Below, piece by piece: positions 51,079 to 61,428 of a DNA stretch of 64,000 nucleotides. The position numbers and the translations under genes are program-made. Position 1 is the first letter of the stretch. Each line of letters opens with the position of its first letter. The DNA is from an uncultured delta proteobacterium (lineage in GTDB: Bacteria > Myxococcota_A > Polyangia > Fen-1088), in assembly GCA_963755125.1 (NCBI GenBank), contig CAVWIP010000014.1, forward strand, positions 65,681 to 129,680, given 5' to 3'. Under the pieces are notes generated by a model. That model saw only the letters and a list, made by a program, of their open reading frames with translations. It did not search any database and had not been told where the DNA came from.

Positions 51079-52692
51079 TTACAGATTGTCGAGTCCTGCG
51101 CGCTCGGGCGCGGAGCGCGCGGCCGGCTTTGCTGCCACGGGCGCGGGGCGTGCCGGCCGCTTGCTTGTCCCCGTCTTGTGGTCAGGCAACGCCAGCAGAA
51201 CCTCCTTCGCTATGACATCGTAGTCCAGAGGCACCGTGATGACGGCGCTGCGGTACCCGGCCATGTCCAGCCTGAGCCGGACCGAGCCGCCCGCGGATTG
51301 GGTCCGGGTCAGCGTCAAGGGTGTCTTGCCCAGGACGTCGCCCGTGGTGACCTGTACCACGGAGGCTCCCGGCGGAGTCGAGTCGACCGCAATGGTGATC
51401 CTGCCTTGCGCGGCCGGCATACCCGGCGATGCCGCCTCAGGCAGCCGCCCGGCCGCAGGCGCAGACGCGGGCGTCGTCGCCAGGCCGGCCACGAACGGGA
51501 GTTTGGCGCGCAGAAAGTAGAACGCCGCGCCCGTGCCCACCAGCCCGATCCCCATGATTGCGATCAGAAGAGCGGACGAGCGTGGCGGCGAATTGAGGGT
51601 GTTGCTGCGCATCCGTGCCGACAGGGTATTGGCGGCGCTGTCGGCCGGACGGATGCCCCGCGCGTCCGCCGCAGTCCGGGCGGCGACGGCCCGCTTCGCC
51701 CTCGCCGCGCCCGTCAAACTCCATCCCACATCGATCGGGTCGGCCTTGACTGGCTCCAACGAGATCGCCACGGGCGCGGGCGTGCGACCGGTGGCCCACG
51801 GCCTGACGCCAGGACGGCCCAGCGCCGCCGACACGTCCGCCACAATCGCTCCCTGGACAAACTCCAGCGCACACATGAACTCAGCCACGCTGGCATAACG
51901 ATCGGCCGGGTCCTTTGCCAGCGTGCTCAGGATGGCCCTGTCTATCGACTCGGGAATCGAGGGAACGCGCAGACGCGGCGGCTCGGGAGGCTGGTTGATG
52001 TGCATGTTGAGTACTTCAAAGAGCGCATCGGACACAAAGGGCGGCGCCCCGCACAACATTTCGTACAGAATTATCCCTAGCGAGTAGATATCCGTGCGGT
52101 GGTCGATCTGACTGCTGCCACGGCACTGCTCGGGCGACATGTATAGCGGCGTGCCCATGAGCGAGCCAGCCTGTGTCTGCATGGAGGGGCGCCCCTCGCC
52201 TCGCAGCTTGGCGATGCCGAAATCGAGCACCTTGACCAGGAGGTGCCCGGGAGATCGCGCATCGGGAATCAAGAAGAGATTGTCGGGCTTCAGGTCGCGA
52301 TGAAGCACGCCGCATTCGTGCGCCGCAGTGAGCGCTGAGCCCGCCTGCGTGATGAAATCCAACGCATCGTCGAGCGAGAGACGTTGGCTGCTCGCCAGCC
52401 GAGCGGTCAGACTTTCACCGTCGAGCTTCTCCATCAGGATATACGGCTGGCCGTCCTCCAGACGGCCGAAATCGTAGATGTCGATGATGTTGGGGTGCTT
52501 GATGGCGCTGGCGGCGCGCGCCTCCGCCACGAAGCGCGAGTAGGTGTGGCGATCGCGGGCAGCCTCGCTCTTGAGAACCTTGAGGGCCGCCTTGCGCCCT
52601 ATCTCGGGGTGCTCGGCCAAGTACACCACGCCCTGGGCGCCCTCGCCCAGAAGGCTGACGACGACGTAGTTCCCGACCTTCTTGCCGATCAA
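51079..52692 (-). CDS. Ser/Thr protein kinase with TM segment and C-terminal PEGA-like domain
   Basis: Kinase motifs: GEGAQGVVY, AALKVL, HRDLKPDNLF, DFGIAK, GTPLYMSPEQ. The C-terminal ITIAVDSTPPGASVV…GKTPLTL…LDMAGYRS is PEGA-like. TTG start. Confidence 0.9.
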   Translation of the reverse strand: MIGKKVGNYVVVSLLGEGAQGVVYLAEHPEIGRKAALKVLKSEAARDRHTYSRFVAEARAASAIKHPNIIDIYDFGRLEDGQPYILMEKLDGESLTARLASSQRLSLDDALDFITQAGSALTAAHECGVLHRDLKPDNLFLIPDARSPGHLLVKVLDFGIAKLRGEGRPSMQTQAGSLMGTPLYMSPEQCRGSSQIDHRTDIYSLGIILYEMLCGAPPFVSDALFEVLNMHINQPPEPPRLRVPSIPESIDRAILSTLAKDPADRYASVAEFMCALEFVQGAIVADVSAALGRPGVRPWATGRTPAPVAISLEPVKADPIDVGWSLTGAARAKRAVAARTAADARGIRPADSAANTLSARMRSNTLNSPPRSSALLIAIMGIGLVGTGAAFYFLRAKLPFVAGLATTPASAPAAGRLPEAASPGMPAAQGRITIAVDSTPPGASVVQVTTGDVLGKTPLTLTRTQSAGGSVRLRLDMAGYRSAVITVPLDYDVIAKEVLLALPDHKTGTSKRPARPAPVAAKPAARSAPERAGLDNL

Positions 52693-52878
52693 GATCCGTG
52701 GACCCCGGCGATCATGGTAGCACCGATGACGGCGCTGGGGGTAGCAGCGGACCGCCTTTCTTTCGGCCGACCCGTCGCCTGCTGGAGCGAGACGTGTCGT
52801 CTCACTGGCCTGTGCGACCAGTGCCCGGATTTGCGGCGACCGGCCCAGCCGTGAAAACCCAGGAACGCGGCAGAAGGG

Positions 52879-60145: not shown

Positions 60146-61428
60146 GGTGCGATCCAGAAAAAGCCGTCGGGCAGGCTGGTCCAGCCGTCGTTGGCGTCGA
60201 AGGCCCAGACCGTGGCCTGTCCGCTGGCGCCGGGCACGACGCCGATAATTTCAGTGTCGCTTAGACAGGACGCATTGGCCAAGGGAACCGCGGCGGCCAA
60301 GACCTGGCCAATGTAGATGATCGTGGACGTGGTGAAGTTGGCGCCAGAAACCTGTACGGGGGTGTCCTGCCCTTGCAGACCATAGGCAGGCGAGATCGAC
60401 GCGATCTGTGGTGGAGGCTGATACTCGAACGACGCGAACCAGGTGGCCAGGCCCAGCCGCGACTGCACGGTCACGGTGGCCGGGCCTGCGGCGTGAGCCG
60501 GGGTGTACCCGGTGATGGTCTGTTGGTCGGCGGACACGACGCCGCCATCGGGGATGATGGGGGTGTCGTCGAAGTAGACACGACTTCCGGCAACAAAGCC
60601 CGATCCTCGGATCACCACATTGGTTCCACCCGCCACGCCTCCTGCCTGCGGCGTGACCGAGGACACCGTAGGGGGCGCGCTCAGCCTGATGGGGAGGTCC
60701 ACGCTGGTCTGGTTGGGCGGCACGGCGTTGTCCGAGGCCACAATGTCCAGGTTCACCGTCATGCCGGGATCCAAGTTCGAACCGATGGTCACGTCGAAGG
60801 TGCAGTCGATCTCCTCTGCGCCCGGCCGGAACGGACAGGTGGCCGTCACCGGGTCACGTTGTGTCCCGTCGTCGGCCGGCGGCTCAGAATACCTCCAGGC
60901 CAGCGCCGTCATCTGGCCGGGTGGCTGGTCCACAGCGCTCACGTTCCCGTGAATGATGGTCCCCGGGGCGTAGAGATCTCCTGCGCTCGGGCTGGTGACC
61001 GTCACTATCGGCGCGAAGGTGTGCCGCCCCAGCGCAAGGAAACCAGCCGGCAGCACTGCCTTGCGGCCGCGCGGATCCGTGATCTCCACATCGCAAGGAC
61101 CCGCGCCCAGGTCGTCCGGATCCGGTAGGTCCAGGGTGGCCGAGATCTGCGTCGGGCCGACCCATCCGAAGTCGGTCAGGGGAAACCACGTCGGCGGGTT
61201 GCCCACACGGCCCGAGAAGCCGTCCATGGTCGCCACCCGTTGGCCCGAAACAGGGTCGAGGCGGAACGATGGGATGAAGTCCGCGCCCATCAGCGTGAGG
61301 CGGAGGTCGCCATCGGTGTAGGCCTGCGCGGGCTCAACCGCGTCGATGCGCGGCTGCGGCTCGTTTCCGGTGCAGCCGGCAAGGGCAGCGGCGAGAACAG
61401 CAAAACCTGTGCGGCGTCCGGGGGTCAC
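60142..61428 (-). CDS. Lipoprotein with IPT/TIG-type Ig domains
   Basis: Lipobox LAAALAGC. Repeated P.I..V.P..G...GG..V.I.G.GF segments are present (PTVSSVTPQAGGVAGGTNVVIRGSGFVAGS; PQIASISPAYGLQGQDTPVQVSGANF). GTG start. Confidence 0.7.
   Translation of the reverse strand: MTPGRRTGFAVLAAALAGCTGNEPQPRIDAVEPAQAYTDGDLRLTLMGADFIPSFRLDPVSGQRVATMDGFSGRVGNPPTWFPLTDFGWVGPTQISATLDLPDPDDLGAGPCDVEITDPRGRKAVLPAGFLALGRHTFAPIVTVTSPSAGDLYAPGTIIHGNVSAVDQPPGQMTALAWRYSEPPADDGTQRDPVTATCPFRPGAEEIDCTFDVTIGSNLDPGMTVNLDIVASDNAVPPNQTSVDLPIRLSAPPTVSSVTPQAGGVAGGTNVVIRGSGFVAGSRVYFDDTPIIPDGGVVSADQQTITGYTPAHAAGPATVTVQSRLGLATWFASFEYQPPPQIASISPAYGLQGQDTPVQVSGANFTTSTIIYIGQVLAAAVPLANASCLSDTEIIGVVPGASGQATVWAFDANDGWTSLPDGFFWIAP

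Follow-up and report, generated by a model that had tools for sequence, protein, structure and literature searches.

In a 64-kb window of an uncultured delta proteobacterium of the Polyangia (64,000 nucleotides; positions 65,681 to 129,680 of contig CAVWIP010000014.1, assembly GCA_963755125.1), we analysed a run of eight co-directional genes on the minus strand, here termed g1 to g8 in the order in which they are read. Comparison with related loci very probably splits this run into a conserved core, g1 to g4, and a set of add-ons, g5 to g8. The core encodes a lipoprotein, a sensor histidine kinase, a single-pass inner-membrane protein with a FecR fold and a predicted outer-membrane protein in which immunoglobulin (Ig)-like domains are joined to a beta-barrel. 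Its four genes most likely form a translationally coupled operon. We consider it probable, on balance, that they make up a sigma-independent, envelope-spanning sensory module, in which g3 would couple the envelope proteins to the kinase. A preliminary description of this DNA, made from its letters alone, had pictured the whole run as an envelope sensing apparatus that feeds an orphan histidine kinase. This idea holds for g1 to g4, whose order, orientation and overlaps are conserved, but not for g5 to g8.

The eight-gene run and its relatives

All eight open reading frames (ORFs) of the preliminary description are present at the positions it gave, and they are co-directional:

60142..61428, minus strand: g1, 428-amino-acid lipoprotein with IPT/TIG (Ig-like) domains, first gene of the four-gene core
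58238..60145, minus strand: g2, 635-amino-acid sensor histidine kinase
57300..58241, minus strand: g3, 313-amino-acid single-pass inner-membrane protein with a FecR-fold and an Ig-like domain
55330..57303, minus strand: g4, 657-amino-acid predicted outer-membrane protein with four Ig-like domains and a C-terminal 8-strand barrel
54428..55333, minus strand: g5, TPR protein outside the core, with a signal peptide and, C-terminally, two transmembrane helices
53382..54428, minus strand: g6, accessory Cys-rich lipoprotein that accompanies g5; its MYXO-CTERM-like C-terminal anchor is a sub-threshold match
52879..53370, minus strand: g7, small probable lipoprotein of 163 amino acids, lineage-specific
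51079..52692, minus strand: g8, membrane Ser/Thr kinase with a periplasmic PEGA domain, lineage-specific, outside the core

Within the core, stop and start codons overlap by 4 nucleotides at every junction, namely at 60142-60145 between g1 and g2 (GTGA), at 58238-58241 between g2 and g3 (ATGA) and at 57300-57303 between g3 and g4 (ATGA). The g5 and g6 genes have 1 nucleotide in common (TGATG), and gaps of 11 and 186 nucleotides separate g6 from g7 and g7 from g8, respectively. The overlaps reported earlier are correct for these four junctions. The ORFs of g4 and g5 overlap as listed, but g5 more probably starts at Met19 (at about 55279), which would leave a gap of about 50 nucleotides after g4. 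Hydropathy and lipobox scans support an envelope location for all eight products, as had been predicted. A scan for promoter and terminator consensus sequences between 50800 and 63200 revealed no sigma-70-like sites and only weak intragenic hairpins that resemble terminators; given the high GC content, transcription units are not definable in this way. Rfam gave no match within the run.

We collected about 90 related loci (numbered with the prefix L), which belong to uncultured Polyangia-type Myxococcota and whose metagenome-assembled genomes carry the taxon names 'Polyangia bacterium', 'Myxococcales bacterium' and 'Deltaproteobacteria bacterium'. A genome scan seeded with 63 homologues of g4 yielded 9 loci from metagenome-assembled genomes, a metagenome scan seeded with 177 homologues of g3 yielded 67, and look-ups of exact proteins gave further ones. 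Conservation in an 18-sequence alignment of g4 was too low for the genome scan, which was redone with 9 closer sequences. All proteins of the window were compared with 82 loci by tblastn.

The g2 kinase lies upstream of g3 in 48/48 evaluable loci, g1 is found upstream of g3 in 42/43 and g4 downstream of g3 in 53/53. This order persists where the identity of g4 is only 32–35%. Moreover, the 4-nucleotide overlaps are kept in 46/46 loci for g1/g2, in 34/40 for g2/g3 and in 12/13 for g3/g4, and all three are maintained across sequences of only 33–60% identity. A convergent T2SSF gene was found in 30/35 evaluable loci, and in most sister lineages it comes directly after g4. The g5 gene follows g4 in 3/35 evaluable loci and g8 does so in 2/26, and all of these represent this strain or its nearest relatives. 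The full eight-gene set is present in the near-identical loci L010–L012, which are the only ones with g7; g5 and g6 also lie behind g4 in L001 and L018. The slot between g4 and the T2SSF gene (51079-55329 in the window), which here holds g5 to g8, is empty in most sister lineages. Elsewhere the same slot is occupied by a 6-kb insert that includes a disintegrin-repeat protein (L004, 11945-18054) or, in another lineage, by a phospholipase D gene.

Based on these locus counts and on the separate g5-g6 pairs described below, we divide the run into a conserved four-gene operon, an autonomous g5-g6 pair and two lineage-specific genes. The preliminary description had proposed looking for the same gene order beyond this genome; across the 82 loci it is conserved for g1 to g4 and not for g5 to g8. 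Since the cassette stays constant beside a variable slot and its overlaps are kept at such low identity, we regard g1 to g4 as an operon and not as a mere case of inherited gene order.

The add-on genes largely have the features ascribed to them before. The g5 protein shows TPR matches below the Pfam threshold and two transmembrane segments (residues 197-215 and 251-269), in line with a TPR protein that has C-terminal transmembrane helices. The g6 protein is Cys-rich and has an LAGC lipobox, but its MYXO-CTERM match stays below threshold: TIGR03901 scores 14.5 bits against a cut-off of 20, and about 25 more residues come after the motif. One g6 homologue is named a MYXO-CTERM protein by JGI. 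The 26 homologues of g6 are 48–59% identical, and those that were looked up adjoin a g5 homologue with a stop/start overlap; g1 to g4, g7 and g8 are absent from these loci, whose contexts are otherwise unrelated. Overlapping g5-g6-like pairs stand alone in L083/L084 (9153-11128), L085 (9128-11188) and L086 (1-1463). Because the pair recurs in unrelated genomic contexts, we consider it an autonomous module that has inserted itself between g4 and the T2SSF gene, in the variable slot where g7 and g8 also lie. For g7, neither Pfam nor NCBIfam gave a match. The g8 protein matches Pkinase (1.9e-45) and PEGA (1.4e-5) in Pfam and has a transmembrane segment at residues 375-393; it is indeed a PEGA Ser/Thr kinase, but its occurrence in so few of the evaluable loci contradicts the suggestion that it belongs to the sensing apparatus. 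Finally, upstream 'g5-like' matches in the far clade were rejected as a displaced g5, as they correspond to a different lipoprotein that has one TPR unit in common with it.

Architecture and conservation of the core proteins

The g1 protein matches TIG in Pfam (5.5e-20) and CoaZ_rpt_PGGG in NCBIfam (57 bits, cut-off 30), and its LAGC lipobox comprises residues 16-19, all of which agrees with an IPT/TIG lipoprotein. A strict lipobox Cys is found in 24/31 orthologues, and the remaining ones inspected have a Cys at the same position.

The g2 protein consists of a first transmembrane helix (TM1), a periplasmic Cache-like domain of about 270 amino acids, a second transmembrane helix (TM2) and HAMP, HisKA and HATPase domains. 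The HisKA (3.2e-13) and HATPase_c (1.5e-24) matches in Pfam and the HAMP match leave its assignment as a histidine kinase in place. The dCache_1 match of the sensor domain is weak (4e-4), dCache_1 is on record for the L088 orthologue, and CHASE2 gave no match in Pfam. The H-box reads AHEINNPL, and the best full-length similarities are to AtoS and ZraS, all of them under the NCBIfam cut-off.

No core protein is better conserved than the kinase, which shows 89–93% identity in the near clade and 70–78% in the far clade. The corresponding values are 61–69% and 33–44% for g1, and 69–79% and 40–50% for g4. Even in the far clade, the most conserved parts of g2 are TM1 (residues 3-24, 97–98%) and TM2 (residues 296-318, 91–93%), compared with 82% for the DHp domain and 78–84% for the catalytic domain. 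It is unusual for a sensor kinase that its transmembrane helices are the most conserved part. A nucleotide-level cause was considered and rejected, as synonymous differences in the two helices (0.46 and 0.43, versus 0.32–0.36 elsewhere in g2) are as frequent as in the rest of the gene. Since synonymous change in this region is normal, the constraint acts on the protein. In g3, the residues V20, L24, A27, S31, R32, F35, E36, P43, G45 and L46, which lie in or after its transmembrane helix, are invariant. Taken together, the conservation of g2 and g3 is the pattern that specific intramembrane contacts between the two proteins would produce, although such a pattern is no proof of them.

The g3 protein starts with about 10 cytoplasmic residues and a transmembrane segment (residues 12-30). 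On the periplasmic side it continues with a FecR-fold domain (about 61-205) and an Ig-like domain (222-295), and its LW tail is conserved. Its description as a FecR-domain protein is upheld by its orthologues and by its fold, but not by a family match of its own, as Pfam FecR gave no match to g3 itself at E<0.1. PF04773 was detected in 11/24 orthologues (best 1.4e-7) and Glucodextran_B in 24/24. The AlphaFold model (predicted local distance difference test, pLDDT, 84.9) finds its top Foldseek match in 4m0n/4m0h (BDI_1681, a FecR-type putative anti-sigma factor), with an E value of 5.6e-5 and a root-mean-square deviation of 2.5 A over 129 columns. A profile search of the PDB was marginal, giving glucodextranase domain B at 0.24. 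LysM is absent from g3 and from its 24 orthologues. Moreover, g3 lacks the N-terminal cytoplasmic anti-sigma domain of about 80 amino acids, its transmembrane helix beginning at about residue 11-12. With essentially no cytoplasmic part, g3 is ruled out as an anti-sigma factor.

The g4 protein begins with a signal peptide, which is followed by a disordered Pro/Ala-rich stretch (27-120), four Ig-like sandwiches (125-475) and an 8-strand barrel (492-656). Its AlphaFold model has a pLDDT of 79.5 overall and of about 90 in the domains and in the eight long barrel strands. The C-terminus of the family carries a conserved GYRxGW/F aromatic signal, and distant homologues end in W or F. The model and this motif are in keeping with the beta-barrel-like C-terminus noted earlier, and point to an outer-membrane beta-barrel with an aromatic beta-signal. 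When searched in isolation, the barrel and the Ig region gave no Pfam match even at E up to 5. Against PDB profiles, g4 has a marginal match to FdeC (4e9l, 7.9e-4). Its Foldseek matches are tandem Ig and macroglobulin-domain arrays, and some g4 homologues have faint Big_1 or Invasin_D3 matches. Neither Plug, TonB_dep_Rec nor STN matched g4. An N-terminal extension of an 8-strand outer-membrane barrel is expected to be periplasmic. Because of this established topology of outer-membrane proteins, we expect the linker and the four Ig-like domains of g4 in the periplasm.

The proposed sensory module and its alternatives

We propose that g4 is anchored in the outer membrane by its barrel, so that its flexible linker and four Ig-like domains would hang into the periplasm, and that g1, as a TIG-domain lipoprotein, would contribute information on the state of the envelope. 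The g3 protein would present its FecR-fold and Ig-like domains to the periplasm from the inner membrane. As it has no cytoplasmic anti-sigma domain, g3 is probably an accessory co-sensor, which would relay the state of g4 and g1 laterally to g2 through contacts in the membrane and the periplasm. The state relayed might concern the integrity or the spacing of the envelope, or a ligand bound at the surface, and g2 would then phosphorylate a receiver protein that is encoded elsewhere in the genome. Sigma70_r2 and sigma70_r4 gave no match in the run or its flanks, nor are such proteins listed in the gene tables of the related loci.

The most distant relatives bear on the age of the cassette and on the partner of its kinase. 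An exhaustive profile search with g3 returned 105 representative clusters at E up to 1e-30, five of which were looked up. Since many of the clusters hold proteins of about 300–330 amino acids that match over their full length, the g3 architecture is broader than the first search indicated. In L088 the order is TIG gene, histidine kinase, g3 and g4, followed by a formylglutamate amidohydrolase gene. L013 and L087 have the histidine kinase, g3, an extra soluble HisKA-HATPase kinase (L013, 9222-10001; L087, 3325-4119), g4 and the formylglutamate amidohydrolase; a TIG gene precedes the histidine kinase in L013, and the contig of L087 ends at that position. L090 and L091 encode a homologue of g2 that matches over its full length, the sensor domain too (34% and 29% identity); its gene lies right before that of a g3 homologue and overlaps it. 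Just upstream of this kinase, both loci also encode a REC-PAS-kinase-REC(-GGDEF) hybrid (L090, 3746-7108; L091, 2732-4726), and in L091 the hybrid gene overlaps the kinase gene. A g4-like Ig-array barrel gene lies divergently in L091. From these few deep loci, the pairing of kinase and g3 appears to be old, with g4 as a frequent third member, and the output partner would be variable and, where locally encoded, a receiver-containing hybrid.

In the run itself, Pfam, NCBIfam and the receiver profile detected no receiver domain, no ECF (extracytoplasmic function) sigma factor and no transporter, in agreement with the preliminary description. Across the six-frame ORFs of the window, the receiver profile found CheY and CheB of the neighbouring chemosensory cluster and nothing else, and in the 82 loci it found no receiver gene adjoining the cassette. 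The earlier statement that a partner regulator is missing is thus correct locally, but L090 and L091 do encode receiver hybrids beside their kinase homologue. Since two distant relatives encode receiver-containing hybrid kinases in this position, a partner elsewhere in the genome is likely. The H-box and the similarity to AtoS and ZraS hint at a partner of the NtrC type; L090 and L091 hint at a hybrid relay. The additional signalling genes of L013, L087, L090 and L091 are thereby possible pointers to the phospho-partner that the cassette lacks.

A more detailed version of this proposal can be offered as a tentative possibility. The Ig domains of g4 would act as a 'ruler' and, together with g1, report spacing, integrity or surface contact to g3, which would gate g2 intramembranally. 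The cassette would then be a new, TonB- and sigma-independent cousin of FecA/FecR, and its output would be taken up by an unlinked relay with a receiver-containing hybrid kinase or diguanylate cyclase.

Other explanations have to be weighed against the coupling of g1, g3 and g4 to the kinase. If all eight genes belonged to a single trans-envelope apparatus for sensing or adhesion that signals to the histidine kinase as well as to the Ser/Thr kinase, this would suit their common direction and tight spacing, the predicted envelope location of every product, the full set in L010–L012 and the presence of g5 and g6 behind g4 in L001 and L018. The synteny largely refutes this idea: g5 and g8 are rare behind g4 (3/35 and 2/26), the T2SSF gene directly follows g4 in most sister lineages, the g5-g6 pair is found by itself in unrelated contexts, and gaps of 186 and probably about 50 nucleotides precede g8 and g5. 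We hold it to be highly improbable. It is also very unlikely that the adjacency of the four core genes reflects nothing but gene order inherited in one lineage, their functions being unrelated. Although the related loci also keep the order of their flanking housekeeping genes, and all of them belong to Myxococcota metagenome-assembled genomes from similar habitats, the region just downstream is highly variable and the cassette is not. Moreover, the overlaps at all three junctions are kept at 33–60% identity, and g3 is found paired with the kinase, or with g4, in other gene neighbourhoods too.

A rather unlikely alternative, which the sensor domain of the kinase suggests, is that the Cache domain of g2 itself detects a small ligand, and that g1, g3 and g4 lie outside the signal path. 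They would be envelope proteins with a structural, adhesive or substrate-capturing role that are expressed along with the kinase, possibly as output or cargo. Small molecules are common ligands of Cache domains, g1 and g4 with their Ig arrays resemble adhesins such as FdeC, and L089 has a g3-g4 pair without the kinase. Yet the genes of the kinase and g3 still overlap at about 30% identity, where their contexts otherwise differ, the FecR fold serves in signalling where it has been characterised, and the extreme protein-level constraint on the transmembrane helices is unexpected for a simple ligand-binding Cache kinase. A surface adhesin is unlikely as well, since a barrel of 8 strands is unable to carry Ig domains that lie N-terminal to it out to the surface.

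Several points also weigh against the envelope-spanning sensory module that we prefer. We infer that the four proteins are physically linked, and likewise what the signal would be, in which direction it would run and which partner would receive it, and we derive the periplasmic position of the g4 Ig array from general outer-membrane-protein topology. The kinase is missing beside the g3-g4 pair of L089, and g4 is divergent or absent at the kinase-g3 pairs of L090 and L091. Because these loci lack or rearrange members, the four parts are not an obligate set; the sample at this depth is small, comprising three or four loci. The synteny is in part a matter of vertical inheritance, since the relatives belong to one uncultured lineage and have housekeeping flanks in common (acylphosphatase, Trm112, SpoU, pyrF and proS). 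Nor are the loci independent of each other, since the wetland samples behind several of them are identical or related. So far, the cassette is confined to uncultured Myxococcota.

Surroundings of the run

Upstream of g1, the window differs from all relatives in an insertion sequence (IS) element:

61510..62827, minus strand: IS4-family insertion, about 1.32 kb long and situated some 80 bp upstream of the g1 start
61579-62700, minus strand: DDE transposase ORF with a DDE_Tnp_1 match; the IS4 transposase model scores 134 bits, under its cut-off of 152
62885-63127, plus strand: conserved 80-amino-acid ORF without a family match, followed by an acylphosphatase gene at 63135-63437, plus strand

The element is flanked by the target-site duplication CGCGGCCCG and has the terminal inverted repeat CTGACCG. 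L010 (GCA_050008365.1), which is 99.8% identical over 50001-61509, lacks the stretch from 61510 to about 62827, and the element is absent from all other relatives as well. The near-identity of L010 without this stretch, together with the duplication and the inverted repeat, indicates that the insertion is recent. It separates the cassette from its usual divergent neighbours, the 80-amino-acid ORF and the acylphosphatase gene, and could change how the g1-g4 operon is expressed. The 80-amino-acid ORF lies divergently upstream of g1 in the gene tables that were examined, those of L010, L014 and a JGI contig; its counterparts in the distant L088 and L013 have 80 and 79 amino acids, respectively. 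The acylphosphatase was matched upstream of g1 in most related loci.

Downstream of the run and convergent with it lies a chemosensory cluster (36356-51003, plus strand). Its genes encode, in this order, CheY, GAF, DUF4388-GAF, CheA, HEAT-repeat, CheR, CheB, MCP (methyl-accepting chemotaxis protein), a second HEAT-repeat and a GspF/PilC-like T2SSF protein; the pairing with two PBS-lyase-type HEAT proteins is unusual for such a cluster. The T2SSF gene (49924-51003, plus strand) is an orphan, with no secretion ATPase encoded nearby. It is the convergent neighbour of g4 even where the preceding che genes are missing (L014, 11691-12674). Its product diverges to about 30% identity, and its adjacency to g4 may be functional or merely inherited. 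Farther away, a c-di-GMP-I-GGC riboswitch (29514-29588, plus strand; Rfam RF03167, 65.1 bits, gathering score 59) lies directly upstream of a 329-amino-acid ORF (29598-30587) that has no Pfam match.

Significance and relation to known systems

To our knowledge, FecR domains are mechanistically understood only as parts of anti-sigma factors, and we know of no explanation for the 'orphan' FecR-domain proteins that genome surveys have repeatedly noticed beside kinases and cyclases. The cassette is an unusually clean case of this kind, as it combines a tightly conserved kinase with a FecR-fold partner that is unable to bind a sigma factor and with an outer-membrane partner. If the proposed coupling is true, it would show that the FecR fold has been reused to feed two-component signalling, and it would offer a handle on envelope sensing in uncultured wetland Myxococcota. 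For annotation, the run teaches that a co-directional, overlapping series of genes can mix a conserved operon with recently inserted modules.

The preliminary description did not recognise a named system here, and we likewise found no description of the cassette in the literature searched. It resembles the FecA-FecR-FecI system in that a single-pass inner-membrane FecR-fold protein is encoded beside an outer-membrane beta-barrel protein, and in its logic, by which an outer-membrane event would be passed over the periplasm to an inner-membrane transducer. Unlike that system, it has no TonB-dependent receptor, plug or STN domain, no anti-sigma domain and no ECF sigma factor; its output is a histidine kinase, and its barrel has 8 strands and an Ig array. 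Tandem bacterial Ig-like domains joined to an outer-membrane barrel are also known from intimin, invasin and FdeC, the last of which gave the weak profile match of g4. The g4 barrel differs from theirs in being C-terminal and of about 8 strands instead of N-terminal and of 12, and LysM is absent. Because the order is reversed with respect to these inverse autotransporters and the barrel has about 8 strands, the Ig array of g4 is expected to stay periplasmic.

Two uncharacterised clusters from other phyla are similar in gene content, and among described genomes they are the closest precedents for a FecR-domain accessory gene in an operon with a sensor kinase or a cyclase. In the Burkholderia 'BiofilmReg' operon and a related Pseudomonas aeruginosa PAO1 pair, a FecR-domain accessory gene accompanies a CHASE2 sensor kinase (PMC5192318). 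Like the cassette, BiofilmReg unites in one operon a secreted or membrane FecR-domain protein without anti-sigma function, a histidine kinase that senses the periplasm and further small envelope proteins. It has features of its own in the LysM on its FecR protein, the CHASE2 and PAS sensor and a CreB-type regulator as first gene, whereas the cassette has a Cache-like sensor, no LysM and no regulator, plus the Ig-array barrel and the TIG lipoprotein. In Campylobacterota, genes for a CHASE2 adenylate cyclase and for a TPR protein cluster with that of a FecR-domain outer-membrane protein (PMC9239204). Here too, a FecR-domain envelope protein next to a membrane signalling enzyme was recognised by conserved clustering alone, but the output consists of a cyclase and a phosphodiesterase and not of a histidine kinase, and both the sensor domain and the taxon are different.

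In concept, finally, the cassette recalls pathways in which a lipoprotein and a barrel report the state of the envelope to an inner-membrane accessory protein that controls a histidine kinase. Envelope stress is sensed through outer-membrane lipoproteins by RcsF, which acts with outer-membrane proteins and IgaA on RcsC/D, and by NlpE, which acts on CpxA. The cassette proteins showed no sequence or fold relationship to RcsF, IgaA or NlpE, so that this likeness is one of analogy only. The cassette would function most like FecA/FecR cell-surface signalling and lipoprotein-based envelope-stress sensors, and it is a variant of a known theme, that of a sensor kinase with periplasmic accessory proteins.

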